From a virus: a DNA stretch of 40,597 nucleotides. Numbering within the stretch: the first letter of the stretch is position 1; every line of letters begins with the position of its first letter. The notes beneath the pieces are model-generated. The model made no database searches and was not told the DNA's origin. It saw only the letters and a list, made by a program, of their open reading frames with translations. The stretch lies in UHGV virus genome UHGV-0183645. One strand, given 5' to 3'. This document shows positions 1 to 24,997 of the stretch, in pieces. A program made the position numbers and the translations under genes.

Positions 1-3
1 GTG

Positions 4-33
4 CAAGCACCTGGGGAAACCGGGTGCTTTTGT
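4..33 (+). terminator. Rho-independent terminator-like hairpin (GCACCTGG-gaaa-CCGGGTGC then TTTTGTT)
   Basis: 8-bp GC-rich stem (one G-U wobble) with a GAAA loop and a T-rich tail at the very start of the window. It would terminate the gene ending at 40597 if the contig is circular. Confidence 0.45.
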
Positions 34-57
34 TATGCCCGGAAGGAGGTGGTGCGT

Positions 58-288
58 ATGGTAAAAAAATTGAAATTTGAATGGAGGTTATTTAGACGGC
101 AGTTCCATCCATTGTGTGGTATCAATATTATCCACATGACTGATAGCAAAGGCAACTACGAAATGTCATATCTTACGTTCTTAAAAACTCCAATGGGAAC
201 AGAAAGTGTGTTTCGGATTGGTTTTGATAAGAATACGGTGAAAAAAGAGGCATTACCGAATTGGATAAAGCACATGTTGGAAGGGTAG
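58..288 (+). CDS. hypothetical small protein (76 aa)
   Basis: ATG at 58 preceded by a GGAAGGAGGTGGTG RBS. No recognisable motifs. Confidence 0.45.
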   Translation: MVKKLKFEWRLFRRQFHPLCGINIIHMTDSKGNYEMSYLTFLKTPMGTESVFRIGFDKNTVKKEALPNWIKHMLEG

Positions 289-317
289 GAGGTAAAATAG
301 AATGCCTCCCTACAATG

Positions 318-521
318 CTATAACGTTTCTGGTGCCTGCGCTATAATAGGACATTTGTTTGAATCACATTTGTCACCAAACATATTGTATCTGCATTCGG
401 CCATTCCTTTTTCATAACGGCGTCGTTGAGTGTCATTAAGTGATGTAACATCTATGTACTCAACTGTGATACTATAGTCTTTATTTTGCGCGGGGCAGAA
501 TCCAGAGAAGGTTTTACGCAT
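318..521 (-). CDS. hypothetical Cys-rich small protein (67 aa)
   Basis: Second in-frame ATG (521) has an AAGGGGGTGA RBS. Minus-strand -35 TTGATT / 16 nt / -10 TATACT lies just upstream. Orientation is opposite to the tail genes. Confidence 0.45.
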   Translation of the reverse strand: MRKTFSGFCPAQNKDYSITVEYIDVTSLNDTQRRRYEKGMAECRYNMFGDKCDSNKCPIIAQAPETL

Positions 522-589
522 TATATCACCCCCTTCCATGAATTAGTATATCATATGTACGTTTAAAATCAATAAGAGAGGTGGTGCTT

Positions 590-979
590 ATGTCTGCATA
601 CAAAGGCTGGCTATTAAAATTCGATGGACGAGAGCTTCCGATGGACTTCATAGCCCACGCTTCGTACAATGCAACCCCGGACCAGAGGCAGGATGAGGAT
701 TCCTACCAGGACGGATATGGGATATTACACCGAAATGTGTTGCCGCATACCAGAACAAAAATCGAGTGGTCTACTCCGTTTATGCATCTGGCTGATAAGA
801 TAAGGATGCAATCATATTTCCCGGACCGTGTGACCATGGAGGTAGAATACTGGAACGATGAGAGGAACGCATATGTTACGGGAACATTTTACGTACCAGA
901 TATTCAATTTCCATATTATGACACCAGTGAAAACGATATACGATATAATCCCATCCGTATTGCACTAATTGAGTATTAA
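590..979 (+). CDS. phage tail component, possibly a minimal distal tail protein (Dit-like)
   Basis: ATG 590 after an AGAGAGGTGGTG RBS. 130 aa. Lies immediately upstream of the Tal-like gene. Assignment is positional only. Confidence 0.35.
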   Translation: MSAYKGWLLKFDGRELPMDFIAHASYNATPDQRQDEDSYQDGYGILHRNVLPHTRTKIEWSTPFMHLADKIRMQSYFPDRVTMEVEYWNDERNAYVTGTFYVPDIQFPYYDTSENDIRYNPIRIALIEY

Positions 980-991
980 GGAGGTGGTAAG

Positions 992-3073
992 GTGCTGGAT
1001 GTACCAGAGTTTGTGAAACATAGATGCCGTGGAGACAATAACAGGATGGAGACAGTGAAACATCTGGAGCTGTCTTTTTTTAATGGCGGAGTTGATACAC
1101 TGTATCCAGCAAATGACCTGTACCCAGCCGATAACCTGTATCCATCCGACGCGGGGACGCCGTGGCTGACCATCCCAATGGAGCAGATATGCGCGGAGAC
1201 ATTGAGCCTTACCGAAAACTTGTCCTCCGGAAGTAATATCATCTGGGGAAGCTGCGAGGCGGCTAAGTTTGTGGTTACAGTAGCCGACGTAGAGGACGAG
1301 ATTGAGGGCCGGGAGTTTACTGCCACACTGAGTATAGGCGATTATAAGATGGCCTACGGTATCTATGTAGTTGATAGCGTAGTACGGCAGGCTGACCGCA
1401 GAAAGCATAAAATCACGGCCTATGACCGGATGATTAAGTTTGATGTGGATGTCTCAGACTGGTACCATTCAATGTACCCCACAGACGATACCACGCATAC
1501 CATCCAGGAGCTGCGGGACAGTCTTTGCGAGCACATAGGAGTACCACAGCAGCAGACAGTGCTAATCAATGACGAGATGGTGGTCGGCAAGACTATCAGC
1601 CCTGAATCATTGTGCGGCCGAGATGTGCTTAAGGCTATCTGTGAGATTAGTGGTGTGTTCGGCCACTTTGACCGCACTGGCATGTTGACGTATATCAGCC
1701 TGCAGGATACCGGCCTGTATCCGTCTGATACCCTGTATCCTGGAGACGACCTGTATCCGCAGTCCGGATGGGCTGCCGCAGAGGAACTGGAGTATTACAA
1801 AACCATCACTTACGAGGATTATCTGATAGATGGGATAGACCGGGTACAGGTGCGGCAGGAAGATGGAGACATCGGCGCCGTGGTCGGTTCTGGCAGCAAC
1901 GCTTATATAGTGGAGGGTAACTTTTTGGCCTATGGCCTGGGGAGCGCAGACCTTACCAAACTGGCTTGGTCCATTTATGATTCCATTGCTGGCAAAACAT
2001 ACCGGCCGGCTAAAATAGTATCCTATGCTATGCCCTGGATAGAGGTGGGAGACGGCCTGCGGGCAATCACTACGGACACGGAGATAGCTACATTTGTGCT
2101 TACCCGGACCATGAGCGGCATACAGGCCATGATGGATACCGTGGAGGCTAAGGGGACCAAGACGCAAGGACAGAGTTTTGGTGTTGAGAATGAAATCATC
2201 CAATTGAAAGGCAAGACAGCCGTTATAGTGCGTAACGTGGACGAGGTATCAGCCACGGTGACGGACCTGGAGAAGCATACCACGGCTCAATTAAAGGTAG
2301 TGTCTGACCAGATAACCGCAGAAGTTAAGCGGGCCACGGACCAGGAGGTGGAATTGGCCGGCAGCATAAGTGTTCTGGCCGGACAGATTGAAGCCAAAGT
2401 AAGCCGTGGGGATTTGGTAGCCGCCATCAATCTGGAGGTGAATAAGGCCGGATCATGTATCACTATGGAGGCCGGGCATTTTATTTTTAAAGGCAGCAAC
2501 TTTTATGTCAATGAAGATGGTTCCGGTGGTGCCGCTAACGGGAACCTTGCTTGGGATGCCTCCGGCGGGGTGGTTGCTAAGAATATAAAACTGATAATGG
2601 CAGACATCTCTGGTACAACCAACACAAGCACAATTGGCTGTAGTACACTCAGTGCCCAAAATGCTAATATTGACCGCCTGACCGTGAATGGTACAACAGA
2701 GATGGGGGACATCGTGTGTAGGGATGTGTATGGTGACGATATTGAATGTACACAGATATATAGCAGCAGGGCAGGGCAATGGTGGAGTGATAAGCGGCTG
2801 AAATATAATATAATGCCAATTGATACGGAGGAGGCTCTGAGAGTGGTGTTGGGGCTGCGCCCAGTAACCTTCTGCATTAAGGGGACGGATAAAGTGGATA
2901 TGGGTTTCATTGCGCAGGAAGTAATAGAATTAGAATCAACATTGCCCTTATATGGGGAAAAGGATGGATTCTATAGCCTTCCATACCCAAACTATACGTC
3001 ACCTTTGGCTGGCTCAGTACAAGCCCTGTATAACAGGATTATAAGATTGGAGGATGTGGTATATGCCAACTGA
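992..3073 (+). CDS. tail-associated protein (Tal-like N-terminal region) with C-terminal intramolecular-chaperone (peptidase S74-like) auto-processing domain; receptor-binding tail fibre/spike
   Basis: GTG start 5 nt after AAGGAGGTGG. 693 aa. The C-terminal ~130 aa (…MPIDTEEALRVVLGLRPVTF…GFIAQEV…) resembles the chaperone domain of endosialidase/tail-fibre proteins. Two sets of three tandem xDxLYP hexapeptide repeats are present. Confidence 0.65.
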   Translation: MLDVPEFVKHRCRGDNNRMETVKHLELSFFNGGVDTLYPANDLYPADNLYPSDAGTPWLTIPMEQICAETLSLTENLSSGSNIIWGSCEAAKFVVTVADVEDEIEGREFTATLSIGDYKMAYGIYVVDSVVRQADRRKHKITAYDRMIKFDVDVSDWYHSMYPTDDTTHTIQELRDSLCEHIGVPQQQTVLINDEMVVGKTISPESLCGRDVLKAICEISGVFGHFDRTGMLTYISLQDTGLYPSDTLYPGDDLYPQSGWAAAEELEYYKTITYEDYLIDGIDRVQVRQEDGDIGAVVGSGSNAYIVEGNFLAYGLGSADLTKLAWSIYDSIAGKTYRPAKIVSYAMPWIEVGDGLRAITTDTEIATFVLTRTMSGIQAMMDTVEAKGTKTQGQSFGVENEIIQLKGKTAVIVRNVDEVSATVTDLEKHTTAQLKVVSDQITAEVKRATDQEVELAGSISVLAGQIEAKVSRGDLVAAINLEVNKAGSCITMEAGHFIFKGSNFYVNEDGSGGAANGNLAWDASGGVVAKNIKLIMADISGTTNTSTIGCSTLSAQNANIDRLTVNGTTEMGDIVCRDVYGDDIECTQIYSSRAGQWWSDKRLKYNIMPIDTEEALRVVLGLRPVTFCIKGTDKVDMGFIAQEVIELESTLPLYGEKDGFYSLPYPNYTSPLAGSVQALYNRIIRLEDVVYAN

Positions 3074-3293
3074 TAAGGATAAAGATATGGTAGTGTATAG
3101 CCAGAAGGATATACTGGTGATTGGAAATCTAATAAATTCCCTGGAATTCAAAGGGGTGGAGTCGGCGCGGAAGATAGCAACAATAGGGACATTGCTGGAG
3201 ACAGGGAAGCCGCTGGAGAATTATCTTAAAGAGAGGAGTGATGAGGATGGGACTACTGAGCAGGATGAGCAGGGCAGCGACAGCGTTGACTAA
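3063..3293 (+). CDS. hypothetical small protein
   Basis: ORF overlapping the end of the Tal-like gene and the start of the fibre gene. No clear RBS. Confidence 0.3.
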   Translation: MPTDKDKDMVVYSQKDILVIGNLINSLEFKGVESARKIATIGTLLETGKPLENYLKERSDEDGTTEQDEQGSDSVD

Positions 3294-4470
3294 ATACTAT
3301 TTTCCGTTTACCTGGCGGAATAAGCCGAGTCTTGAATCACCAATCAACGAGGTACATCTGAACCACATGGAGGATGGAATAAATGAAATGGATAACCGTA
3401 TCCTCCTTCTGGCCCAGGACAAGGCGGACGCCGCGGATATGGCGAATGTAATCATTGATTTTACCATGGATGATACCACAGGCGTCATGACCTTCACACG
3501 CTTTGATGGTTCAACCTTTACGCATGACACGGCTGTTGAAAAGATTGCGCTTAATTGCTATCTGGAGGGTGACAATTTTGTGCTGGAGCTGGCCGATGGG
3601 ACCAAACAAAAGGTATCCCTAAGCAAGTTTATAGACACGTATACCTTCACAAGCACGGACCGGATACGATTCACAGTCAATGGCAAGAACATATCAGCGG
3701 ACATTCCTGACGGGAAAATCACCCTGGCGAAATTAGAGCCTACAGTCATGTCCACCATCCGCCAGTATACCCTGGATGCGCAGACGTCCAAAGGTGTGGC
3801 GGAACAGGCAGCCAGTACGGCGCAGGGCTGGGCCATCGGAGGCACCGGATTTGAAGGCAATAATGCAAAATATTATGCAAGCAAGTCACAGAGGTATGCG
3901 GTTGGAGGTGTGGAAGAAGGAGATGCAAAAGATAATGCAAAGGCATACTGCGAGGCAGCTAAAGGCTATGCAGAACAGTGTGCAGGGGTTACGGAATTTG
4001 ACGGTACGGCAACATCCGTTAAGGCAACAGATACACAGGGGCTTGTCGTAGCTGCCGGAGCGGACAGTAATGCCCAGGCCCTGCTGGATGCGCTGGCCCG
4101 TAAGGTTGCCCTGGAGCTGGTAAGCAATACAGCCCTTACCACGAAATTGGCGGATTATCTTAAAAAGACTGATATCGTGCAGACAGAGTCCACAGCTACA
4201 AATAAGGTCCCATCCAGCGCGTACCTTAAGCAGGTAAAAGATAGCATAGATAGCAATTTAGCAAAAACTAATGCAAAGGTGACTTTAAACGGCGTCAAGA
4301 ACATTAATGGTTTTACAGCCGTGTATTCTGACCGAACTGACCGGGCATTCCAGCTATATTATGATAACGGTGAGATTGCGTCAATCGCATTTAACAACAC
4401 CGGTATCTGGTATGATTTTTATGACGGACGAAACTGGAAGCAGGTTTGGAAATTTAATAAGCCATCATAA
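3241..4470 (+). CDS. tail fibre protein
   Basis: AGAGAGGAG RBS. Ala/Lys-rich repeats (NAKYYASKSQRYA…DAKDNAKAYCEAAKGYAE) are reminiscent of lambdoid side-tail-fibre repeats. Position is downstream of Tal. Confidence 0.5.
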   Translation: MRMGLLSRMSRAATALTKYYFPFTWRNKPSLESPINEVHLNHMEDGINEMDNRILLLAQDKADAADMANVIIDFTMDDTTGVMTFTRFDGSTFTHDTAVEKIALNCYLEGDNFVLELADGTKQKVSLSKFIDTYTFTSTDRIRFTVNGKNISADIPDGKITLAKLEPTVMSTIRQYTLDAQTSKGVAEQAASTAQGWAIGGTGFEGNNAKYYASKSQRYAVGGVEEGDAKDNAKAYCEAAKGYAEQCAGVTEFDGTATSVKATDTQGLVVAAGADSNAQALLDALARKVALELVSNTALTTKLADYLKKTDIVQTESTATNKVPSSAYLKQVKDSIDSNLAKTNAKVTLNGVKNINGFTAVYSDRTDRAFQLYYDNGEIASIAFNNTGIWYDFYDGRNWKQVWKFNKPS

Positions 4471-4826
4471 TAATCATTTTGTGCTGAAGGCATATAGGTT
4501 CGTAAGGTTTGGAACTTGACTGTTATAACCAATAAATCGTACGGTATCACCTTTACGCACAGAAAACCATATAGGCATTGACGAATTGACTGTGACATCA
4601 TTATTGACCCAAAAAATATTTATCCCATTTATAAGTACATTACAACCCTGAGCTGAGATGTTAAAACCAATGGAACCACAAACTATACAATCCTCTGTAG
4701 CTGCCCAACTTGTACCGTTAGCAAACCCATCTTTAATTTTTTTGCTGGTGTCTATGTATGGTAAATTGCTATTTTAAATAAGTTAACAGGCAGTTTGGGC
4801 GAATTAGAAGGGAAATTGGTTTAAAA

Positions 4827-5216
4827 CTATTCCTCGATATACCAATATTTACGGGTCCGATTATATGGTTCTATACCATGTTCCTGGCAATACATATTAT
4901 ACTTTATTTCCAGCTTTGTAGAAGATTTACATTCCTGTTTTAGACATTTTGAAATCGCCGCATTTGTTTCACGCCCGTCTATAAAATGATAGTGCAGATG
5001 TTTATCCAAAGTGTTTTCTTTATAGCCCAGAAGCCTGCTTGGATAAAAGGAGTAGCGATTTTTACTTTTATCGTAGATGCACAAGAAAACAAGTCCTCTT
5101 TTTATATATCCGAGTATTTCCTTATACTCAGGAGATGTTGTTTTTGAAAGATAGGACTCAAAAGTTGATATATTTTCCAATATATCATTGAGACTCGTAA
5201 CTAAAGTGGCATTCAT
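4827..5216 (-). CDS. hypothetical protein (129 aa), independently transcribed moron
   Basis: ATG with a perfect AAGGAGGT RBS. Own minus-strand promoter. Markedly AT-rich relative to flanking structural genes. No recognisable domain. Confidence 0.6.
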   Translation of the reverse strand: MNATLVTSLNDILENISTFESYLSKTTSPEYKEILGYIKRGLVFLCIYDKSKNRYSFYPSRLLGYKENTLDKHLHYHFIDGRETNAAISKCLKQECKSSTKLEIKYNMYCQEHGIEPYNRTRKYWYIEE

Positions 5217-5247
5217 ATGCTATACCTCCTTATATGGTTGTGGCTAA

Positions 5248-5276
5248 AATATAGCATATCCAAGGCTGGAAGTCAA
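5248..5276 (-). promoter_or_regulatory. sigma70-like promoter for 4827..5216 (-35 TTGACT, 17-nt spacer, -10 TATATT on minus strand)
   Basis: Read directly from the sequence. Spacing is consensus-like. Confidence 0.45.
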
Positions 5277-5378
5277 AAGTGTATATGTGATGAAAAAAAA
5301 ATGAATCGTAACCTGCAAATCAGGTCCCTAAACCAGGGGCTTATTTTATTGCCCGGAAGGGCAGAAAGGAATGAATCT

Positions 5379-5789
5379 ATGAATGAAAAGATTGTATTGA
5401 AAAACGGGAAGGAGTACCCGCTGGTCATCGGCGGCACATCCTCCACGCCCAGCACGCTGAGGCTTATCTTTCAGACAGCGGAGCCGCTGGAGGATATCGT
5501 GTCCTTGTTTGCGGATGCGGCAGCCACGGAGCAGATTAAGACCATTAATGAGGATGGCAGTACCCTGGCCGTATATGATGGCTATACGGTGCTGGATAAC
5601 CCAAAGAGTATTGATGACAACTACCTTATCACGCCAGAGCAGTACGGGGAGGACGGTGCCGTCACCGCCGAGGCCGTATATGGTCGTGTGGCGCTCCTGA
5701 CGCTCTCACAGCCGGGTGTAGGGGTGCAGGTGGATAAACTTAGGGCCGATGTCGATTACGTGGCTATTATGGCCGGTATTGATTTATAG
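5379..5789 (+). CDS. XkdW-like phage protein (tail-fibre-associated), tentative
   Basis: 136 aa from an ATG with an AAAGGAA RBS. Precedes an XkdX-family gene as in PBSX-like tail-fibre/lysis junctions. Confidence 0.35.
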   Translation: MNEKIVLKNGKEYPLVIGGTSSTPSTLRLIFQTAEPLEDIVSLFADAAATEQIKTINEDGSTLAVYDGYTVLDNPKSIDDNYLITPEQYGEDGAVTAEAVYGRVALLTLSQPGVGVQVDKLRADVDYVAIMAGIDL

Positions 5790-5803
5790 GAGGAGATGAG
5801 ACC

Positions 5804-5938
5804 ATGGATGTGAAAGCATTAGCGATAAAGTATTACCCAAAGCTGTGGGACATTGACCGGCTTAAGGCCCTGGTGGCCGCGGGTAAACTGTCCGAGGCGG
5901 ACTACAAGGAGATTACCGGAGAGGACTACACAAAATAA
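5804..5938 (+). CDS. xkdX: XkdX-family small phage protein
   Basis: 44 aa. The motif …KLWDIDRLKALVAAGKLSEADYKEITGEDY matches the XkdX signature (GKIT.EEYK.ITGE.Y). AGGAGG RBS. Missed by the ORF track because it is under 60 aa. Confidence 0.6.
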   Translation: MDVKALAIKYYPKLWDIDRLKALVAAGKLSEADYKEITGEDYTK

Positions 5939-5947
5939 GGAGACATC

Positions 5948-6289
5948 ATGGATGTGATAGCACAATACATAAGTGTTCATTGGGTGGAATGGTTGTTTGT
6001 AGCCATCTCCACCCTTTTAGGATTTGGGTATCGTCAGATACTCAAGAGGCAAAAGGAGGAATCCGTAAAGACAGCGGCCCTCCATGATGGTATGCAGGCA
6101 CTTTTGAGGGACCGTATCATACAGGCCTACAATCATTATCAGGATAAGACATTTTGCCCGATATATGGTAAAGAGAATGTTAAGCGGATGTATGACGCAT
6201 ACCATGTCCTGGGCGGTAATGATGTGGCAACAGAGCTTAAGGACAAACTTATGAAGATGCCGGAGGAGCCGGCAGAAAGAGAGGTATAG
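5948..6289 (+). CDS. lysis-cassette membrane protein with N-terminal TM helix (possible holin-like/XhlA-like)
   Basis: AAGGAG RBS. Hydrophobic N-terminus WVEWLFVAISTLLGFGY. Sits directly before the holin. Confidence 0.4.
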   Translation: MDVIAQYISVHWVEWLFVAISTLLGFGYRQILKRQKEESVKTAALHDGMQALLRDRIIQAYNHYQDKTFCPIYGKENVKRMYDAYHVLGGNDVATELKDKLMKMPEEPAEREV

Positions 6290-6292
6290 AGT

Positions 6293-6553
6293 ATGGATTT
6301 ATCGTTTTTTAGCAATTACACAGTGGTGGTTATCGTGGGTATTTGCCTGATTACAGGCTACATAGCCAAAAAGTGGGTGAAAGACCTGGATAACAAATAC
6401 ATCCCCACCATGGTGGCCCTGCTGGGTGCAGCTCTCAACATCTGGATTATGGGCGGGGTAAGCCCGGATATCATCCTGGCCGGGGCATTTAGCGGGCTGG
6501 CAAGTACGGGCCTGCACCAGGCGTTTAAACAGCTCATAGAGGGTAAACAGTAA
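6293..6553 (+). CDS. holin (phiLC3/LL-H-like, two TM segments)
   Basis: 86 aa with two hydrophobic helices and a charged C-terminus. AGAGAGG RBS. Immediately upstream of the endolysin. Confidence 0.6.
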   Translation: MDLSFFSNYTVVVIVGICLITGYIAKKWVKDLDNKYIPTMVALLGAALNIWIMGGVSPDIILAGAFSGLASTGLHQAFKQLIEGKQ

Positions 6554-6582
6554 TTGCGATATCGCAACTTGTGACGTTACAA
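6554..6582. promoter_or_regulatory. two adjacent TTG-N8-CAA palindromes (TTGCGATATCGCAA perfect; TTGTGACGTTACAA imperfect)
   Basis: Seen directly. Candidate protein-binding site between holin and endolysin. Confidence 0.3.
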
Positions 6583-6590
6583 CTTTTCAT

Positions 6591-6622
6591 GGCTCAGGGA
6601 TGCCCCTGGGCCTTATTTTTTT
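6591..6622 (+). terminator. hairpin GGCTCAGGG-atgc-CCCTGGGCC followed by TTATTTTTTT
   Basis: 9-bp stem with one mismatch and a T-run. Possible partial terminator between holin and endolysin. Confidence 0.4.
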
Positions 6623-6639
6623 GATTGGAGGAAAACACT

Positions 6640-7413
6640 ATGAGTAAAACAGCAACAGGATTAATTCAGCACTGCAAGGACAAACTGGTCACACCCTACG
6701 TTTACGGTGCCAAAGGCGAGGTCCTTACCCAAGCCATCCTTGACCGCCTCGCCCGGGAGAACCCAGGCACATACACATCCACCTACAAAGCCAAGGCGGC
6801 CAAGTACATAGGCCAGCGCTGCACGGACTGTTCCGGCCTCATCAGCTGGTATACGGGCATCCTACGCGGCAGCTACAACTACCACGACACAGCAGCGGAG
6901 CGCGTGAGTATCGGCCATCTGGACGAGTCCATGGTCGGCTGGGCGCTCTGGAAGCCGGGCCACATCGGGGTGTACATAGGTGATGGTTGGTGCATTGAGG
7001 CCAAGGGCATCAACTACGGGACTATCAAGTCCAGAGTGACCGCCACACCCTGGCAGAAGGTCCTCAAGCTCTGCGACATCGACTACACACCGGTCCCAGT
7101 GACATACACCCAGGGCTTCCAGCCGGCCGCAGACGGTAACCGTTGGTGGTATCAGTTTACAGACGGCAGCTATGCGGCCAATGGCTGGTACTGGCTCCGG
7201 GAGGCCACGGACGGCACCTGCGGCTGGTATCTGTTTGACAGCGAGGGCTACATGCTGACCGGCTACCAGGTGGACCCTGCCGGTGAAGCATTTTTACTCT
7301 GTCCAGTCAAGGGCAGCGACGAGGGCAAGTGCATGATTACGGATGCCAGGGGCGTGCTGCGGATTGCAGAAGAGTACGACATGGTAAATCGACGGTACGT
7401 GTTTACATGGTAA
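6640..7413 (+). CDS. endolysin: NlpC/P60-family peptidase domain plus C-terminal choline-binding-type cell-wall-binding repeats
   Basis: Catalytic Cys (DCSGLISW) and His (GHIGVYIG). Repeats GWYWL…GWYLFDSEGYMLTGYQ. GGAGGAA RBS before ATG 6640. Confidence 0.8.
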   Translation: MSKTATGLIQHCKDKLVTPYVYGAKGEVLTQAILDRLARENPGTYTSTYKAKAAKYIGQRCTDCSGLISWYTGILRGSYNYHDTAAERVSIGHLDESMVGWALWKPGHIGVYIGDGWCIEAKGINYGTIKSRVTATPWQKVLKLCDIDYTPVPVTYTQGFQPAADGNRWWYQFTDGSYAANGWYWLREATDGTCGWYLFDSEGYMLTGYQVDPAGEAFLLCPVKGSDEGKCMITDARGVLRIAEEYDMVNRRYVFTW

Positions 7414-7423
7414 GTCCATAAAA

Positions 7424-7447
7424 ACGGCGGGGGTTATTCCTCGCCGT
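7424..7447. terminator. bidirectional hairpin ACGGCG-N12-CGCCGT flanked by an A-run and a T-run
   Basis: Lies between the convergent endolysin (+) and the 7458..7964 (-) genes. Confidence 0.45.
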
Positions 7448-7457
7448 TGAAGTGTGG

Positions 7458-7964
7458 TTATTTTTTTATATCATGTTCTGTGGGTATGACTTTCCACCCC
7501 TTATATGTGCAGCACCCATAGTTTTTTCCGAGCATCGCCCGTTTTGCTCCTGACAGTCCAGTGCTTACATTTCTAAATTCTTTACTATCTGGCATACAGC
7601 CAAATAATTTAAGGCAGTTCTCCCGGAGCCAATAATTCAGACAATGAAATTTATATTCTTTTCCATCAGGACTAATTAAATGCCAGTCCTTTGCATTGAT
7701 ATTTGTCAAGAATTTACCGGATTTTGGACTTTTCTGTGCGGCAGGTGTTCCTAAGGCGAGATTAGCCGTTTTACCCTGCGCGGCTTTTCTGGTCCGGCTT
7801 TCTTCGCACCATTTGTTCGACAGGCCCATATGTATGCGTGAACGATGAATCTTGGAGCATTCCTTACCACAAGTAACGGTTTTATCGGACGGAAAACATG
7901 GGAAGGTTTTCCCACATACGACACAAATCTTGGTGCTTTTTGGCGGCCTTTTAGACAAAATCAC
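7458..7964 (-). CDS. zinc-ribbon protein of unknown function (168 aa)
   Basis: N-terminal CVVCG…CGKEC ribbon plus a further Cys/His-rich C-terminal region. Start overlaps the stop of the upstream HTH gene (translational coupling). Confidence 0.5.
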   Translation of the reverse strand: MILSKRPPKSTKICVVCGKTFPCFPSDKTVTCGKECSKIHRSRIHMGLSNKWCEESRTRKAAQGKTANLALGTPAAQKSPKSGKFLTNINAKDWHLISPDGKEYKFHCLNYWLRENCLKLFGCMPDSKEFRNVSTGLSGAKRAMLGKNYGCCTYKGWKVIPTEHDIKK

Positions 7965-8229
7965 TCACCTCGCAGCCAAGGGCCTTTGCCAATGACAAGG
8001 CATTGCGCAAAGTCATATTTCCAAGGTCCCTTTCTCCAGATTCAAATTTTTGTATCTGGCGGATATTCATTCCCGCAGAGTCGGCCACCTGCTGCTGGGT
8101 CATCCCGGATAGGGAACGTTGATACAGCAGTTTATTGATATTATTATTATGACAATCCCTGCCACGGCTGGAGGCAGAGCAGGCCCCGCATAATCCGTCT
8201 GTCCTGATACAATCTGGGTATCTTCTCAT
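7951..8229 (-). CDS. XRE-family HTH regulator with N-terminal Cys4 cluster
   Basis: AGGAGGTG RBS before ATG 8229. C-terminal LSGMTQQQVADSAGMNIRQIQKFESGER is a classic HTH_XRE. N-terminal CIRTDGLCGAC…CH cluster. Confidence 0.6.
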   Translation of the reverse strand: MRRYPDCIRTDGLCGACSASSRGRDCHNNNINKLLYQRSLSGMTQQQVADSAGMNIRQIQKFESGERDLGNMTLRNALSLAKALGCEVSDFV

Positions 8230-8241
8230 TTTTCGCACCTC

Positions 8242-8562
8242 CTACCAAACTAAATCAAATTCATAATATGCCGGATTACTGGTTTCTACATTATACCAAT
8301 CTCCATCATTGTAACGCTGTTCTAAAAGCGCCTCTCCTTTGAGGTCCTCTGAATCATTGGTGATATCAAATTCCACCGCAATTCCAAGCTCTCTGGCGGC
8401 TGCTAGTGTGTGGTGTTTATCATTCTGCATTGCGTATTCAGTTCCATCAATATAACCAACATAAGTGCAAGGGATGACGACCTTTGTGATACCTTTAATT
8501 TCTTCCATCTTTTTTTCTACGATTTCCCAATCTATGTGGTGCTGGCTGCTGATTATAGTCAT
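8242..8562 (-). CDS. hypothetical acidic protein (106 aa)
   Basis: ATG with a GGAAAGGGGA RBS. First gene of a three-gene minus-strand operon. No motif recognised. Confidence 0.5.
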   Translation of the reverse strand: MTIISSQHHIDWEIVEKKMEEIKGITKVVIPCTYVGYIDGTEYAMQNDKHHTLAAARELGIAVEFDITNDSEDLKGEALLEQRYNDGDWYNVETSNPAYYEFDLVW

Positions 8563-8663
8563 TGTTTTAATCCCCTTTCCTTATCTCTGATTATATTTTA
8601 CGCCCAAAAGGGCGCAAAGTCAAGAGAAATTGATAAAGATTTTTGAATTTTAGAAATTATAAA

Positions 8664-8699
8664 AGCGGGTACCGGATAAACCGGGCCCGCCCTATTTTT
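8664..8699. terminator. GC-rich hairpin (GCGGGTACCGG…CCGGGCCCGC) flanked by an A-run and a T-run
   Basis: Lies downstream of the ligase gene on the minus strand. Confidence 0.45.
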
Positions 8700-9639
8700 C
8701 AATGCATTCTGCTGCTGTTTTGTCAAACCTTAATCCTTTAAATACCGGCTGCCGCATCCCTCCAGATTTGGTATGATGCATAAACTTTACAATGCATACA
8801 AGGTCTGGAGAGAGCCATACGGCCCGGTCATTGCCGTGGCCTGCCGGATATGCGATAAATGGGGCAGATGGAAGCGTGGGATGTCTGGAGATGATATCAA
8901 ACGCCTGCCCACTGACACCCATGGTAACATGTCCTTTATAGATTAATGTATTACCCCGGTACTGTCCCAGGATAATGCTGGTCATGTGGTTACTTTTTAG
9001 GATATAGCCGCATATCACAAAATCATCATCTTGCATGACCTTCATTTTTATCCAATCAGAAGTGCTTTTATCTTGAATATAGATGCTATCTTTCTTTTTA
9101 GCCACAATTCCTTCTAACTTCCGCTTCAAAGCAAAATCAAAGAGGTTTGTCCCGCAACCTTCCGTATATCTGGATATGGCCATCCTTGGGCCATCCGAAA
9201 CGACCTTGGAAAGTAAATCCTTACGTTCTGTCAACGGCTGCAGCAATGTGTCTTTATAATCGCAATACAGAATGTCGAATGCCAGGAATGTAGCCGGGTT
9301 GCGTTTGGCGTCTAACTCAATTTTAAAACGGTCAGACATCAAGCTCCTTCTTTGGATTAACGAAAAATCGGGGCGCCCATCTTTCAGTATAAATAATTCC
9401 CCGTCCAGAATGCAGCGTTTTTTAACCTGCCTGCTGATTTCTTTCAGTTCGGGTACCTTATTCAGCATCCGCACGTTCCTTTTGTTTCTCAGTTCTGGCA
9501 GTTTTCCTGGTTCCAGATATGCCACACAGCGCTCTCCATCCCATTTCAGCTCATACATATACTTGGGGTCATCGAAAGGGGCCATTTCTTTGCCGATAAG
9601 CATAGGCTTGATATTCTTACTGTCAAAAAGGTCCATCAT
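8692..9639 (-). CDS. ATP-dependent DNA ligase (LigD-type ligase domain only)
   Basis: Motif I ELKWDGER. Motifs V/VI EGIVAKKKDS…DWIKMK. Start overlaps the ku stop (ATGA). Confidence 0.85.
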   Translation of the reverse strand: MMDLFDSKNIKPMLIGKEMAPFDDPKYMYELKWDGERCVAYLEPGKLPELRNKRNVRMLNKVPELKEISRQVKKRCILDGELFILKDGRPDFSLIQRRSLMSDRFKIELDAKRNPATFLAFDILYCDYKDTLLQPLTERKDLLSKVVSDGPRMAISRYTEGCGTNLFDFALKRKLEGIVAKKKDSIYIQDKSTSDWIKMKVMQDDDFVICGYILKSNHMTSIILGQYRGNTLIYKGHVTMGVSGQAFDIISRHPTLPSAPFIAYPAGHGNDRAVWLSPDLVCIVKFMHHTKSGGMRQPVFKGLRFDKTAAECIEK

Positions 9640-10445
9640 GCCGTTGCGGCCTTTTTCCGCGGCTTACGTTTGGTCGGTGGTTTATTGTCTGATACCTGTG
9701 CAAGACTACGTTGCAAAGCATCCATGATATCAATAACATTGTCCTGATGTTCTGCTGGCGCATTAACGATTTCCTGTCCGTTTATTTTAGCTTCTATAAT
9801 CTGTCTTAGCCTTATCTGGTATTCATCATGATACAATTCTGGCTCAAACTCTTTGTCCATGGAGTTAATAAGCATTTTTGCCATATCCAGTTCTTGCTGC
9901 TGCAATTCGGGGTGCGCCGGTTCCTTTGGGATTTCCTTCACCTCATCCGCGAAAAATAGGGTTTCCACAAGCATTCCCTTTGGCGTGGGAATTAGACACA
10001 GTAGCTTTTCGGATTGCCCCATGACTGTCTTTGCTATTGCCACCTTACCCTCATCAAACATGGCCTTACGGAGTAATTCATAGGCTTTGTCTCCGCCAGC
10101 CTCTACAACTGCATGATAAGTTTTGTCAAAATAAATAGGACGTATATTTTTAATGTCTGTAAAATGCAAAATCTGTATGGTTTTATCCTTCTCGGTTTTC
10201 GCCTTCTCAAAATCTGTGTCAGTCATCGTTACATACTGACCAGGTGCAAACTCAAAGCCTTTGACAATATCTTGAGTGCCTACTTCTTTCCCACAGTTGG
10301 CACAGACTTTTTTATACTTGACTCTTGACCCATCCTCCTTGCATAATTGGTTAAAATGGATGTCATTATCCTGCGTGGCCGTGTGTAGCGCCACCGGGAT
10401 GTGTACAAGGCCAAAACTGATTGCCCCTTTATGCGCTGCTGGCAT
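9636..10445 (-). CDS. ku: Ku protein (NHEJ DNA-end-binding)
   Basis: GAISFGLVHIPVALHTAT…VKYKKVCANCG…YHDEYQ are typical of bacterial Ku (YkoV/Mt-Ku). Internal ATG 10445 with an AGAGAGGTGA RBS is preferred over the track start. Confidence 0.9.
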   Translation of the reverse strand: MPAAHKGAISFGLVHIPVALHTATQDNDIHFNQLCKEDGSRVKYKKVCANCGKEVGTQDIVKGFEFAPGQYVTMTDTDFEKAKTEKDKTIQILHFTDIKNIRPIYFDKTYHAVVEAGGDKAYELLRKAMFDEGKVAIAKTVMGQSEKLLCLIPTPKGMLVETLFFADEVKEIPKEPAHPELQQQELDMAKMLINSMDKEFEPELYHDEYQIRLRQIIEAKINGQEIVNAPAEHQDNVIDIMDALQRSLAQVSDNKPPTKRKPRKKAATA

Positions 10446-10498
10446 ATAATCACCTCTCTCTTTTTTAGGTGTAGTATGTCCAGTTAAGTTAATATATA

Positions 10499-10768
10499 TC
10501 ACATAGCCATTGATGATGAGTTACTGACAGTCATAGTCCAAAATCCCAGTAGCGCATAATAATTTAGACCAATCTCATGGCGTTGATTTTTACATGATAC
10601 AGTACAACGGTATTGGGCATATTCGCGGTATTTGTCCGGTTTTTTCGTGCAGATATAGTTTTCGATTTTATAGCATGGCGCATCTTTATCGAGTGAGAGC
10701 TTAAGCCATAGGGGTTGAGTATCTCCGTCAGTATTAAAAGATGCGATAACATAGACACGTTTTGTCAT
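10499..10768 (-). CDS. hypothetical protein (89 aa), first gene of the ku-ligase operon
   Basis: ATG with an AAGGAGTGAG RBS. Immediately downstream of the LexA-box promoter. Confidence 0.5.
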   Translation of the reverse strand: MTKRVYVIASFNTDGDTQPLWLKLSLDKDAPCYKIENYICTKKPDKYREYAQYRCTVSCKNQRHEIGLNYYALLGFWTMTVSNSSSMAM

Positions 10769-10790
10769 TTACACTCACTCCTTTAGTTTC

Positions 10791-10820
10791 ATTATACGAA
10801 CATATGTTCTTTTTGTAAAG
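10791..10820 (-). promoter_or_regulatory. sigma70 promoter (-35 TTTACA / 17 nt / -10 TATAAT, minus strand) with LexA/Cheo box CGAACATATGTTCT (10797..10810) filling the spacer
   Basis: Seen directly. The box matches the Gram-positive SOS-box consensus CGAAC-N4-GTTCG at 13 of 14 positions. Confidence 0.6.
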
Positions 10821-10907
10821 GGGTGAAATCTTACCATTTTATCGACCTTACCAATTCAGATGTTGTGGGGTATAATATGGCTATCTATTAATTCTAGGAG
10901 GTATTCT

Positions 10908-11096
10908 ATGATTCAAGACACTTTCGTTATTTATAGTTCACGTAGAGCAGCAGCAGACATGTTTGAGGCCATTAATCTTATTCCAGAGCAAATGAATTTT
11001 CATGGCCTATATTATGTGGACGAAGAGACAGCGGCTGCCAACCTGGAGATGGCAGCCTTACACGCTATATTGATGACGGGGTATGAAATTATGTAG
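10908..11096 (+). CDS. hypothetical small protein (62 aa)
   Basis: ATG 10908 after a TAGGAGGT RBS. Upstream -35 TTACCA / 17 nt / -10 TATAAT. Confidence 0.4.
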   Translation: MIQDTFVIYSSRRAAADMFEAINLIPEQMNFHGLYYVDEETAAANLEMAALHAILMTGYEIM

Positions 11097-11265
11097 TGAT
11101 AATGCATTTCCCGCAGTCCTTCACAACGCCGCATATTAATGCATCTTCTTTTACATAACAGTATCCCCCACACTTACAGGTGCATTTCCAGATTCTTTGG
11201 TCTTTGCTTTTCCAGGACCATTTTGTCGTGAGACTTCCAAACGTCATTTCTGGTATTACTTTCAT
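11089..11265 (-). CDS. small zinc-ribbon protein (58 aa), truncated paralogue of the N-terminus of 15631..16287
   Basis: GGAAGGAG RBS before ATG 11265. FGSLT…RIWKCTCKCGG…CG.VKDCGKC parallels FGRLTV…RWVCKCSCGKE…SCGCL. Confidence 0.4.
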   Translation of the reverse strand: MKVIPEMTFGSLTTKWSWKSKDQRIWKCTCKCGGYCYVKEDALICGVVKDCGKCIITT

Positions 11266-11367
11266 ATGTATCAGCTCCTTCCAGTTTATTATATCATTGC
11301 GTTTATTTTCCACAACTGGTATATATTTCCAGTGGTATTTTGGGTCTAAAGTGGTATATTCGTATTT

Positions 11368-11652
11368 ATGAAGATACTGCTGAAAGAAATAAGAAAAGAA
11401 AGGAATTTATCCCTTCGGCAGATGGAAATAATAACTGGGGTATCGAAATCTGCACTAAGCCGAATTGAGAAAGGCGAGGTGGCATTGGATTTAGATGTCG
11501 CTGAAATGATTGCCGAAGGATTACATATAGGGATTGATGATTTGTACGAATCGGCAGTAAAACATAATAAGTGTCCCGATATCGGGACAAAACAGGGGAA
11601 TAATAAGAGAGGACCGTTATCCAAGTATAAGGAGGGTACGGGACATGGATGA
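11368..11652 (+). CDS. XRE-family HTH transcriptional regulator (94 aa), probably leaderless
   Basis: LSLRQMEIITGVSKSALSRIEKGE is an HTH_XRE. No RBS. Extended -10 TGgTATATT ends 7 nt before the ATG. Confidence 0.65.
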   Translation: MKILLKEIRKERNLSLRQMEIITGVSKSALSRIEKGEVALDLDVAEMIAEGLHIGIDDLYESAVKHNKCPDIGTKQGNNKRGPLSKYKEGTGHG

Positions 11653-11815
11653 TTGTACAAAAGAAAGATTTGCAACATTGATTATGGAAGTTATGGAGCT
11701 GGACGAAGAGGAATATGAATGTTACAAGCGCATAATGAAAATCAAGAATGACGTTCTTGTGCAGAATTTTTTTAACTACACAGACTATGTACGTATTCAA
11801 AAGAGGGGCCGCTGA
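11646..11815 (+). CDS. hypothetical small protein (56 aa)
   Basis: ATG after an AAGGAGGG RBS. Ends inside the terminator stem. Confidence 0.3.
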
Positions 11816-11829
11816 GCCCCTCTTTTTTG
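11802..11829 (+). terminator. Rho-independent terminator AGAGGGGC-cgctga-GCCCCTCT plus TTTTTTGC
   Basis: Perfect 8-bp GC stem followed by a T6 tract. Confidence 0.7.
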
Positions 11830-11867
11830 CAAATATAGACATGTTTTAACGCTAATATGTTTGTTGA

Positions 11868-12122
11868 AAACAGTAGTTAAATTGAGTTCGTTAGTAACAC
11901 ATTAATAACAAATCAATCATAGATTCCTTTATTTACTGGGTTTTTCGGCTGTGCTGGATTAAGAAAATCTTAAAATTGCGCCGAGAGTCAAAAACATTGA
12001 TAATTCGACATTTATCTTAGAACCCGCATAAAACAAGGAAATATTCAATATTGAGTAGTTATATTAAACAATGTGTTGTGTTGAGCAATTTCTTGCAGGT
12101 TAGTAACAAATTAATAACAGAT
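11868..12122. repeat. putative attP region: ~25-bp imperfect direct repeats GTTAGTAACA(c/a)ATTAATAACA(a/g)AT flanking a ~200-bp AT-rich segment at the 3' end of int
   Basis: Repeats seen at 11869..11893 and 12095..12119. Location is immediately downstream of the integrase gene. Confidence 0.35.
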
Positions 12123-13289
12123 TTTTATTTTGCAAATTTCGTTCATCAGGTCCTCGAGGTCTCTATGACCATATTTTTTATTTGTTATATCTTGTCCGAA
12201 GGAATGTCCAAGCATTCTTATTCGGTCATTCTCATTAACTTCATAGTGTTCGCACAATTTTGAAAATGTATGCCTGCAATCATGAGGAGTATGTTTGGTC
12301 ATTCCCAGTTCCTGTAACTTGGTATACATGCTAGCCCGGAACTTGTTTGCACTGTCCAATAAGTACCCATCTCTGTCTAATCGGCATTTCACTAGGGACA
12401 GTATACCGGGATGTATTGGGACAATACGATTTTTGCTTGTCCTTGTTTTTACACCACCCTGAAAATAGTTTTCATCAAGATTCACCGTTAGTGATTCATA
12501 GGCGACTATCCTAAATCCACTGTAGCACATAATCAGAATAAATTCTACTGTTGGGTCATCTTTATTATCCCATAGGATTTTTAAATCAGATTCTTCAAAA
12601 GGTACACCCTGCTCGTCATCATCTTCGATATTGATTTTTACTTTATCAGAATAATCTTTTTCACACAGACCCTGCATATCAGCATAAGCATACATTTGGT
12701 GATATAGATTTATAACATGCTCCAAACTGGCATATTTTAGTTCACAAGCATCTACGACAGCTTGCAAATCCTTGTGACGCAACTCCTTGAATATTTTATC
12801 ATGAAGAACGGAGCAATTCTTAAATGCTGCTTGGGAGGCATACATGGTACTCTTGGAGTATTTCTTTTTCTTTGTATTTCCGTCTTTGTCAGTATATTTC
12901 CAATCATAAAATTGTTCGTATACATCTTTGAAGGTCGGGTCAACATTGGGGGAGTTTGTTTCCTTACCAGACACAATATTACATACCTGGTTGTAATCAG
13001 CCAGGAGTTTCTTGACCAATTTGCCTAAATCCTTATCATCTTCACCGACCTCTGGTTTTGGCGGATACACACCCGGTACATATGTACCTGCCTTATATGC
13101 CGTTAAAATAGAAAAGCCATAATACCAGTCATCCACGTAGGCAAGTGCTGGTCTCGTGACAGCCTTACCATCTTCGTCAAATTCTTCTGCAGGTGGATAT
13201 ACGCCGAATGGATTGCTACGGTTGGCCCCCAAGAATCGTATGGAACCGTAACCATTGGGGAGCTTGGGATACTTCCTTCTTTTTGCCAT
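12111..13289 (-). CDS. int: tyrosine integrase
   Basis: C-terminal HDCRHTF and KKYGHRDLEDL supply the R-H-R-Y catalytic residues. N-terminal MAKRRKYPKLPNGYGSIRF is typical of Firmicutes phage integrases. AGGATGGTGA RBS. Confidence 0.9.
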   Translation of the reverse strand: MAKRRKYPKLPNGYGSIRFLGANRSNPFGVYPPAEEFDEDGKAVTRPALAYVDDWYYGFSILTAYKAGTYVPGVYPPKPEVGEDDKDLGKLVKKLLADYNQVCNIVSGKETNSPNVDPTFKDVYEQFYDWKYTDKDGNTKKKKYSKSTMYASQAAFKNCSVLHDKIFKELRHKDLQAVVDACELKYASLEHVINLYHQMYAYADMQGLCEKDYSDKVKINIEDDDEQGVPFEESDLKILWDNKDDPTVEFILIMCYSGFRIVAYESLTVNLDENYFQGGVKTRTSKNRIVPIHPGILSLVKCRLDRDGYLLDSANKFRASMYTKLQELGMTKHTPHDCRHTFSKLCEHYEVNENDRIRMLGHSFGQDITNKKYGHRDLEDLMNEICKIKICY

Positions 13290-13630: not shown

Positions 13631-14062
13631 TTATTGTAATTTTAAATTAAGTAACTCTATTGGATAACCCGTGCAATCGCAGAACTGTTCTTTTGTAAAC
13701 CCATCATACTCATGCAACAAATTGTCTGTAATAAGCAAACATGCAGCAAATAGATTGGCCTGCCGCTCTATCCTTGATGTAAGTAACAATGTATGTGCTC
13801 CCATAAAAGTACAGTTCTCCTTTGAATGGAACACAGCATGACCAAGTTCATGAGCAATTACAACGCGCAGGAAGGCATCATCATCAATACAAGAGTTTAC
13901 ATAAATGCAACGATTGTGTTTCATATATTTGTAAAATCCTGCAATTTTTCCAAGTGGGACAAAGAATACCTTTACTTTCAGACATTTAGCCAACTCTAAG
14001 GGGTCATTAGTTCCGAATTTTCTTGTTAGATATGTAATCTTCTTCCGTATTCTCTCGTTCAA
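13631..14062 (-). CDS. ImmA/IrrE-family metallopeptidase (anti-repressor protease)
   Basis: HEXXH motif IAHELGHAVFH. Downstream partner of the CI-like repressor. TTG start with a GAAGGTGA RBS. Confidence 0.8.
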   Translation of the reverse strand: MNERIRKKITYLTRKFGTNDPLELAKCLKVKVFFVPLGKIAGFYKYMKHNRCIYVNSCIDDDAFLRVVIAHELGHAVFHSKENCTFMGAHTLLLTSRIERQANLFAACLLITDNLLHEYDGFTKEQFCDCTGYPIELLNLKLQ

Positions 14063-14093
14063 TTAATCACCTTCTTTGAGACAGACAATACGG

Positions 14094-14522
14094 CTATTTT
14101 TTTTTGTTCTTGTTCGGATTGTATTTTACCTTATTCTCTCGTTTTAATTGTGTTAAACCAAGCTCCAATGCCTTGCGGAGCAGTTCCAAGGATTCATCAT
14201 CAATTGGCTCTCCGTTATAATAAAGAGGGCCGTCAACATTATTTTCAATCTCTCCCATAATTCTGTCAAGGTCGCGGCCTATTTCACGCTCATCCTTAGG
14301 TGTAAGGCTGGTTTCTTTTATTATTTCGTCATTTTCACCTGTTAATAGATAAGATAGAGGGACTCCAAAATAGTCAGCTATTTTTTGAAGTTTTTCTTGC
14401 TTGAAGTTCCACCTACCTTGTTTCCATCCAGAAAATGAAGCTGTGGAAATTCCTGTTGCTTTGGCTACTTGGTAAGTAGTCACGCCGTATTTTTGTAACA
14501 ATTTTTCAAAATACTCGTACAT
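14094..14522 (-). CDS. CI-like phage repressor, XRE-family HTH
   Basis: N-terminal YQVAKATGISTASFSGWKQGR is an HTH. AAAGGAAAA RBS. Classic ImmR/ImmA pair. Confidence 0.8.
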   Translation of the reverse strand: MYEYFEKLLQKYGVTTYQVAKATGISTASFSGWKQGRWNFKQEKLQKIADYFGVPLSYLLTGENDEIIKETSLTPKDEREIGRDLDRIMGEIENNVDGPLYYNGEPIDDESLELLRKALELGLTQLKRENKVKYNPNKNKKK

Positions 14523-14544
14523 GATAGTTTTCCTTTCTAAAAAT

Positions 14545-14700
14545 AACTATGAAAACTAAAACAAGTACTTGACAAGCTATGAAAACTAATATATACTAAA
14601 AACATCTTAGTAATCATAGCTAAGTAGAACTTGCCTATGTTTTGTTTGATAATTTAGCTCGCAACTTAATTATATAAGAAAACATAGCTAGTGTCAATAT
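14545..14700. promoter_or_regulatory. lysis-lysogeny switch region with two convergent promoters and repeated operator-like sites
   Basis: Rightward promoter: -35 TTGACA 14569..14574, -10 TATACT 14592..14597. Leftward consensus promoter on the minus strand: -10 TATAAT at 14669..14674, -35 TTGACA at 14693..14698. Operator-like repeats: CTATGAAAACTAA at 14547 and 14577; CATAGCTA at 14615 and 14683. Confidence 0.5.
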
Positions 14701-14727
14701 TAAATTTTATAGAAGGGGGGTGAAAAG

Positions 14728-14937
14728 GTGTATATAAAGTATGCAGCATTAAGAGACAAAAAGGGTATTACAGATTATAGGGTTTCTAAAGAGACTGGAA
14801 TATCTACATCCACTTTATCAAATTGGAAACAAGGGAATTATGAACCGAAGCTTGAAAAACTTTTAGTTTTGGCAAAGTATTTTGGAGTATCAGTTGAATA
14901 TTTTGCAAATGATGCATCCGATGGGAAAGGAGAGTGA
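14728..14937 (+). CDS. Cro-like XRE-family HTH regulator
   Basis: GTG start after GAAGGGGGGTGA. KKGITDYRVSKETGISTSTLSNWKQG is an HTH. Confidence 0.7.
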   Translation: MYIKYAALRDKKGITDYRVSKETGISTSTLSNWKQGNYEPKLEKLLVLAKYFGVSVEYFANDASDGKGE

Positions 14938-24824: not shown

Positions 24825-24997
24825 GACAAGCCGGGGGAAACCCCGGCAAATAAAAACGAAAGCTGAGAACATATGTACGAAACAATGAAACAGCGGTGGA
24901 CACCCGCCAAGATGACTCCACCGCTCCCATAGTAACTACCTGAGTATATTATACCCTACTCAGGTGGATAAATCAATCAATATGAGGAGGATATGAT

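Follow-up and report, generated by a model that had tools for sequence, protein, structure and literature searches.

A Ku and DNA ligase module on the temperate phage genome UHGV-0183645, with a LexA-box promoter and a probable forespore-type promoter

Why should a temperate phage carry a complete pair of genes for non-homologous end joining (NHEJ), and under what control do these genes stand? The question is raised by the viral genome UHGV-0183645, a DNA stretch of 40,597 bp (hereafter the window) that profile and phage-family annotation identify as a whole temperate phage genome in circularly permuted form. A first-pass annotation, made from the letters of the sequence, had described three co-oriented open reading frames (ORFs) on its minus strand, encoding an 89-amino acid (aa) protein (orf89), Ku and a short ATP-dependent DNA ligase (ku-lig for the two genes), as an SOS-inducible operon with a single promoter. 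We find all three ORFs, and an SOS-type promoter ahead of them, at the places given in that annotation. There is, however, a second conserved promoter-like motif between orf89 and ku, which is also present 5' of ku across Clostridia, so that the claim of a single promoter does not hold. The reading that we favour, with a probability of roughly 0.55, is that the phage has captured a clostridial NHEJ module for lysogenic conversion, which would be expressed in the forespore from its own promoter and, after DNA damage, by read-through from an orf89 cassette. Gene identities, geometry, motif positions and conservation were computed. The features on which the argument turns are the following.

10819..10791, minus strand: P_orf89, a sigma-A-type promoter with -35 TTTACA, a spacer of 17 nt and -10 TATAAT
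10797..10810: predicted LexA (Cheo) box filling the promoter spacer, CGAACATATGTTCT on the plus strand and AGAACATATGTTCG on the minus strand
10768..10499, minus strand: orf89, a small basic protein, the first gene behind the LexA-box promoter
10481..10472, minus strand: GGACATACTA, a probable forespore-type (sigmaF/sigmaG-like) -10 element between the orf89 stop and the Ku ribosome-binding site
10460..10451, minus strand: ribosome-binding site of ku, GAGAGAGGTG
10445..9636, minus strand: Ku, 269 aa (PF02735, TIGR02772, phrog_4873)
9639..8692, minus strand: ATP-dependent DNA ligase of the LigD ligase-domain type, 315 aa, with nucleotidyltransferase and oligonucleotide-binding (OB) fold
8693..8655, minus strand: intrinsic terminator ending the operon, a GC-rich hairpin with a U-run (free energy -19.3 kcal/mol, z -2.8)

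The identity of the two repair genes was assessed by profile searches. Ku lies well above the curated cut-offs of both PF02735 (5e-49, 167 bits against a cut-off of 25) and TIGR02772 (292 bits against 150), and its C-terminus is the basic tail typical of bacterial Ku, ending in ...SDNKPPTKRKPRKKAATA. The ligase matches PF01068 (2e-28) and PF04679 (1.5e-13) and retains catalytic motifs I (KWDG), III (FDIL), IV (EGIVAK) and V (WIKMK). Its best NCBIfam family by far is TIGR02779 'NHEJ ligase', although the score of 213 bits falls just below the cut-off of 227.75. Neither a polymerase nor a phosphoesterase domain was found in its 315 aa with Pfam and NCBIfam profiles, and assignment to the full-length multidomain LigD (TIGR02776) was rejected, since the alignment is confined to the ligase region and scores 169.6 bits, the cut-off being 373. 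The Ku stop and the ligase start overlap by 4 nt (ATGA), which suggests translational coupling. No terminator was detected in the 53-nt spacer between orf89 and ku, and an orf89-ku-lig transcript would therefore be expected after damage. Ku would bind broken DNA ends and the ligase would seal them; from its family membership the phage Ku is predicted to form a ring homodimer on DNA ends and to recruit the ligase.

The trio is placed between the lysis genes and the integrase and phage attachment site (attP), the position of an accessory (moron) module, and the proposal that a Ku and ligase-only pair resides there on a temperate phage was correct. Relatives of Ku were found at 22 loci in IMG/VR (loci are designated by L numbers below), and the homologous ligase is immediately downstream in 21 of the 21 viral loci that are long enough. 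The same order is seen in cellular genomes, where the homologous ligase lies immediately 3' of Ku in 72 of 80 loci. More than 549 stretches of a species-level genome collection encode relatives, nearly all of them from Clostridia. In the five isolate genomes that were scanned (Hungatella hathewayi, Blautia hominis, Clostridium leptum, Lachnotalea and Anaerolentibacter) the pair sits amid ordinary cellular genes, with a P-type ATPase, an ABC transporter and oxidoreductases among its flanks; of the relatives in such chromosomal surroundings, that of H. hathewayi is the closest, with Ku 84% identical. Chromosomal operons of Clostridia (Hungatella, Blautia, C. leptum, Ruminococcus and others) share 55-84% identity in Ku and 45-60% in the ligase with the window and have the same gene order and leader motif, but they differ in having cellular flanks and almost never a LexA box. 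When the genome loci were tested for homology to phage proteins of the window, only that of Enterocloster citroniae shared phage genes. This nearest genomic copy (strain DSM 19261, L036) has a Ku 98% identical to that of the window and has tail/lysis-region genes in common with the window phage. In metagenomic prophage copies the module is at the prophage end, adjoining host genes. Ku with a short ligase is an ordinary, mostly chromosomal NHEJ operon of Clostridia and, because the isolate loci are flanked by cellular genes and the relatives are nearly all clostridial, the phage module looks like a captured copy of it, leader included. Compared with the window, Ku is 94-100% identical among the closest relatives (L002-L007, L017), and the ligase 84-87% identical in all except L001 (99%), a difference that suggests recombination between ku and lig alleles and a mosaic module.

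Among 50,697 records of cultured phages, those that encode Ku are 87 mycobacteriophage records and one fecal fragment without a ligase, relatives of the ligase occur in SPbeta-like, Rhizobium and Sinorhizobium phages, and no single record has both genes. The suggestion that a phage with its own ligase has not been commonly described therefore stands for cultured phages, but the window is not unique, as at least 21 IMG/VR contigs carry the pair. The literature searched yielded no report of Ku plus ligase being either SOS-regulated or carried by a phage. The parts are known; their combination, a phage-borne NHEJ pair with a retained sporulation-type promoter and an added LexA-type promoter, was likewise not found described there.

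The second promoter-like motif emerged from alignment of the Ku leaders of the viral loci and then of the 80 clostridial genome loci. GG-R-(C)-ATACTA-(A) is found in both sets, in most cases at a distance of 23-36 nt upstream from the ku start codon; in the window, GGACATACTA starts 36 nt 5' of the ku ATG. An exact ATACTA is present between -45 and -15 of ku in 50 of 89 non-redundant loci, whereas two control windows placed farther upstream have it in 0/89 and 2/89, and GGnnAYAMTW is present at the leader in 44 of the 89, with none in either control. If one mismatch is allowed, 86 of 94 loci have the motif. The flanking GG and the downstream A are conserved though neither anchored the alignment. 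The motif is kept even where it falls inside the extended 3' end of an orf89 homologue (L031, L033 and L034), which indicates that it is kept at the DNA level. In L004 and L036, orf89 has been lost while ku-lig and the leader motif are retained, so that the Ku-ligase unit appears independent of orf89. By this conservation, the interpretation of the leader motif as a regulatory or promoter element is well supported.

The forespore consensus sequences are CATnnTA for sigmaG and GGnRAYAMTW for sigmaF, and the leader motif matches them. An extended -10 element for sigma-A was also considered and was rejected, the conserved dinucleotide being GG and not TG. Mapped sigmaF and sigmaG promoters of C. 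difficile that resemble the motif are those of spoIIR (TTGGACATAAT), CD1354 (TTGGACATAATAA), CD1789 (GGATATACTAAT) and CD2465 (GGGAATACTAAA) (PMC3789822, Table S6). A conserved G upstream of the -10 element is a trait of sigmaF and a conserved A downstream a trait of sigmaG (PMC3789822); the ku leader motif has both. A possible -35 element, TGATA, lies at 10501..10497, with a 15-nt gap to GGACATACTA, and GATAT is an alternative. We consider it probable, from this likeness, that the leader motif is a sigmaF/sigmaG promoter. The ykoV-ykoU (Ku-LigD) genes of B. subtilis belong to the sigmaG/SpoVT forespore regulon, according to a passage of PMC3656841 that cites Wang et al. 2006. The window resembles ykoV-ykoU in the order of ku and then ligase in one operon and in the forespore-type promoter-like motif ahead of ku. 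It differs in that BsuLigD has a polymerase domain whereas the 315-aa ligase consists of the ligase domain only, and in that the window operon is phage-borne, with an extra upstream LexA-box promoter and an extra gene.

The promoter ahead of orf89 is of another kind. P_orf89 scores 11/12 and is the top promoter-like site within 7400-12200, and the exact palindrome GAAC-N4-GTTC occurs once in the window, at 10797-10810, in the spacer of this promoter. Promoter scoring and the scan of the whole element thus agree with the predicted TTTACA-17-TATAAT arrangement and with the predicted site of its near-consensus Cheo box. The promoter and box are kept by every orf89 homologue that was traced, with proteins 98%, 72%, 70%, 67% and 55% (L007) identical to orf89. 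The boxes of these relatives (AGAACGTATGTTCG, AGAACATGCGTTCG, CGAACATATGTTTG, CGAACACATGTTCT and CGAACATTTGTTTG) have constant arms and a variable N4 (ATAT, GTAT, ATGC, ACAT, ATTT), and their flanks diverge. The box follows orf89 and not Ku. In L035 the orf89 cassette and its promoter are followed by a helix-turn-helix (HTH) gene, and Ku is missing; in L007 the cassette lies 2.2 kb downstream of the ligase, not ahead of Ku; and in L116, which encodes a 34%-identical family member, TTTACA-17-TATAAT is followed by CGAACATACATTCG, a looser match that precedes an unrelated gene. No LexA box was found ahead of Ku in the Ku-ligase pairs that lack orf89 (L004, L008, L010, L012-L016 and L018). An exact box is present within 500 bp in only 1 of the 80 clostridial genome loci, where it belongs to a divergent Y-family polymerase gene (C. 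leptum), and this rules out general LexA control of ku-lig in Clostridia. The boxes of the viral loci L019-L021 likewise belong to divergent genes and not to ku; the divergent genes of L019 and L020 are Y-family polymerases, which share 30-31% identity with the IMS polymerase of L130, itself confirmed by Pfam. Since the promoter accompanies orf89 where Ku is missing, and is absent from Ku-ligase pairs without orf89, the LexA-box promoter is by its distribution part of the orf89 cassette; in this lineage that cassette has come to stand before ku-lig.

Some variants of this region were seen as well. L001, the closest relative (Ku 100% identical), has a weakened operator, AGAACATATGTTTG, with one arm degraded to GTTTG and a promoter spacer of 16 nt (positions 1820-1850). 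In another phage lineage (L012-L014, positions 3910-4190) the gene upstream of Ku encodes a 76-aa HTH protein, and its promoter is a consensus TTGACA-17-TATAAT that contains no LexA box. It seems that the vegetative promoter added ahead of the same ku-lig unit differs from phage to phage. A degenerate LexA-like box of the window, AGAACATATGTACG at 24866-24879, is 11/12 identical to the core of the real box; its two mismatches lie within what chance would give. It is intergenic, after a terminator, and lies 5' of a second integrase-family gene (24998-26053) and a transcriptional regulator gene (26050-26463), just before the terminase genes.

Is P_orf89 in fact an SOS promoter? When IMG/VR was scanned for the architecture TTTACA-N5-GAAC-N4-GTTYG-TATAAT, it was found in 20 other phage contigs, and the first gene behind it was recurrently YolD-like (PF08863) or a Y-family polymerase (PF00817/PF11799). 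Such genes are classical SOS cargo of Firmicutes mobile elements. A DNA search of the region against the 50,697 cultured phage records gave a sole match, the 38-nt promoter upstream of a YolD-like gene in Mammaliicoccus phage phi31. The occurrence of the same promoter ahead of YolD-like and Y-family polymerase genes supports SOS (LexA) control, indirectly, and LexA control of P_orf89 thus has good indirect support. That the operator is near-perfect suggests that repression is tight and is lifted late. In its design the promoter is nearly identical to the SOS promoters of YolD-like/Y-family polymerase genes in Firmicutes phages (phi31; SPbeta yolD-uvrX), but the cargo here is an orphan beta protein and NHEJ genes in place of translesion-synthesis genes. 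Of the SOS-inducible NHEJ operon that was first proposed, the SOS-type promoter stands, by virtue of its conserved box and the YolD/Y-family cargo of its counterparts, while the assignment of the box to the NHEJ genes does not, as it belongs to orf89.

At three loci (L019:1-1300, L020:480-1790 and, in Clostridium leptum, L069:4448-5750) the Ku-ligase pair divergently adjoins a LexA-box Y-family polymerase gene, which suggests that end-joining and translesion genes cluster recurrently. In L021 (5611-5905) a LexA box and TATAAT drive a divergent 95-aa gene that starts ~100 nt from the Ku start. Read by eye, rather than by profile match, its product looks like the N-terminal winged-helix domain of LexA without the protease, and it could be a phage LexA-like repressor beside Ku-ligase.

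The product of orf89, which had been left as an unknown protein, has no match in Pfam, NCBIfam or PADLOC and contains no hydrophobic segment. Its family is small, with 28 representatives among 1.84 billion clustered proteins, all of 84-108 aa. An AlphaFold (AF2) model built from the 28-sequence alignment confidently predicts a curved six-stranded antiparallel beta-sheet (predicted local distance difference test score 88, predicted template modelling score 0.75), and a fold search with this model gave no significant match. The gene is confined to the closest subset of Ku-bearing viral loci, and family members without Ku are found in L035 and L116-L119. In most relatives it lies immediately 5' of ku, co-oriented and with no terminator between. 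Candidate roles are that of an NHEJ accessory factor or regulator, or that of an SOS-controlled regulator such as an antirepressor.

The favoured reading has two arms. In the forespore of a lysogen ku-lig would be transcribed from its own promoter at GGACATACTA, loading spores for double-strand-break repair at germination, in analogy to the sigmaG/SpoVT-controlled ykoV-ykoU of B. subtilis. In vegetative cells DNA damage would lead to RecA-stimulated cleavage of LexA, P_orf89 would be derepressed and an orf89-ku-lig mRNA would be made. LexA binding, read-through, the sigma assignment and the benefit to the lysogen are steps that we infer. Several points weigh against this account. The -35 element is weak in the window lineage, whether TGATA or GATAT is chosen, and across loci there is a weak G-A-W-W-W signal, with a G-H-W-T-D element at 16-19 nt in only 19 of 52. 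The sigma assignment draws on consensus likeness and on promoters mapped in C. difficile, not on promoters of the host. The exact GAAC-N4-GTTC palindrome has an expected 0.27 occurrences by chance in 40 kb, and at least one was present in 26 of 100 shuffles of the window. Lastly, SOS induces many prophages, and expression in a cell near lysis would serve the phage and not the lysogen. A bolder version, which we consider unlikely, is that a sporulation-specific NHEJ operon was rewired for SOS by temperate phages of gut Clostridia through the SOS cassette set ahead of it, so that vegetative cells make Ku and ligase upon DNA damage or prophage induction. In this version orf89 would be a novel partner or regulator of end joining that SOS induces, or a factor that diverts breaks from AddAB/RecA processing to NHEJ.

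The trio might instead be a purely SOS-controlled operon that serves the induced phage, with Ku capping linear ends against host exonucleases in the manner of Gam, or Ku and ligase together circularising the genome. We regard this as unlikely, even though no terminator parts the LexA-box promoter from any of the three genes and the module is conserved in many related phages, because the box travels with orf89 and not with ku-lig, and ku retains its own conserved promoter-like motif. There is a precedent for circularisation in the mycobacteriophages Corndog and Omega (clusters O and J), tailed phages with a bacterial-type Ku that reportedly joins short cos ends via host LigD. The 87 mycobacteriophage records match the window Ku at 34-36% identity, and no ligase of the window type was found in Ku-bearing mycobacteriophages among the cultured-phage records. 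The window phage differs from Corndog and Omega in bringing its own ligase, in its seemingly headful packaging and in its LexA-type and sporulation-type control signals. Circularisation, one of the roles first envisaged, is thus improbable here, and a Ku function of the mycobacteriophage type was rejected in view of the SPP1-like small terminase and gp7-like head protein that point to headful packaging, the phage's own Erf and NinB/Orf, and its own ligase. With headful packaging and Erf and NinB/Orf, circularisation would be expected to proceed by homologous recombination of redundant ends, and a LexA-repressed promoter would be off when an undamaged cell is freshly infected. End protection is harder to set aside. 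Mu Gam is a phage end-binding protein of the Ku family, able to shield ends and, with a ligase, to promote their joining (PMC8136500). It is a shortened, divergent relative of Ku that uses the host NAD-dependent ligase, whereas the window encodes a canonical bacterial Ku and a dedicated ATP-dependent ligase. Gam-like end protection during induced replication is a live alternative for the SOS arm.

It is quite unlikely, in our estimate, that orf89 has no part in end joining and is a regulator under SOS control, for instance an antirepressor or an activator of ImmA that triggers induction, with ku-lig essentially on its own promoter. The phage repressor is ImmR-like without the S24 autocleavage domain and adjoins an ImmA-like metalloprotease, and the orf89 family members without Ku (L035, L116-L119) fit such a role. 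Tum of phage 186 is a LexA-controlled small antirepressor. Small antirepressors under LexA control also occur in SPbeta-like phages, as a preprint sets out (bioRxiv 10.1101/2025.11.27.690993). An orf89 homologue is, however, encoded by phage L032, whose repressor carries an S24 self-cleavage peptidase domain, so that an antirepressor should be needless there; the usual position of orf89 directly 5' of ku and co-oriented, with no terminator, and the lack of a significant fold match also speak against it. Very improbable is the explanation that the LexA-like palindrome is a chance or non-functional part of a constitutive promoter. The shuffling result given above and the degraded box and shortened spacer of L001 are in its favour. 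Yet its place in the spacer of the best promoter and its retention by all orf89 relatives lift the box above chance. In homologues with as little as 55% protein identity the arms are conserved and N4 varies while the flanks diverge, and in 20 other phage contigs classical SOS genes stand behind a promoter of this architecture. The right-arm GTTT also fits the degenerate B. subtilis consensus CGAACRNRYGTTYC.

Bacterial NHEJ is usually viewed as a chromosomal function of stationary phase or spores, and phage Ku is known mainly from mycobacteriophages, which rely on the ligase of their host. In the present case the whole Ku-ligase pair travels on temperate phages of Clostridia that are abundant in the gut, and it seems to be governed by two signals, sporulation and SOS. 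If the favoured reading is true, prophages could alter the survival by lysogens and spores of double-strand breaks, such as those caused by antibiotics, radiation, restriction enzymes or cutting by CRISPR systems, and they could spread error-prone repair through the gut microbiota. The locus offers a clean test case for SOS-regulated NHEJ, and yields a small uncharacterised protein family linked to SOS.

The surroundings of the module in the window are summarized below.

1-7413: tail and lysis genes
7458-11850: accessory region, which holds orf89-ku-lig
12111..13289: tyrosine integrase
13631-14937: immunity genes, for an ImmA-like metalloprotease, an ImmR-like repressor and a Cro-like protein

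The remaining phage genes include those for Erf-like and NinB/Orf recombination proteins, DnaD-like and DnaC-like loaders, both terminase subunits (small and large), the portal and a minor head protein resembling SPP1 gp7. From these we infer a temperate headful-packaging siphovirus of Enterocloster-like Lachnospiraceae, the packaging mode being suggested by the SPP1-like small terminase and the gp7-like minor head protein. The immunity region (13631-14937) is of the ImmR/ImmA type, with an HTH repressor lacking an S24 domain, a HELGH metalloprotease and a divergent Cro-like gene; no LexA box was found within it. Directly 3' of the ligase terminator, a promoter-like site (8623..8595) precedes a minus-strand trio (7458-8562) encoding a 106-aa unknown protein, a 95-aa HTH protein and a 168-aa Cys-rich/HNH-like protein. 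This trio accompanies the Ku-ligase module in L001 and L005. Genes of similar size (unknown, HTH, unknown) are found 3' of the ligase in L031 and L034. A reading of the accessory genes as a defence system was rejected, as PADLOC gave generic HTH matches only. Beside the module, a 74-aa ORF (11089-11313) is similar to the Cys-rich N-terminal portion of the full-length HNH endonuclease that the phage encodes (15631-16287, phrog_374) and is probably the remnant of a homing endonuclease.

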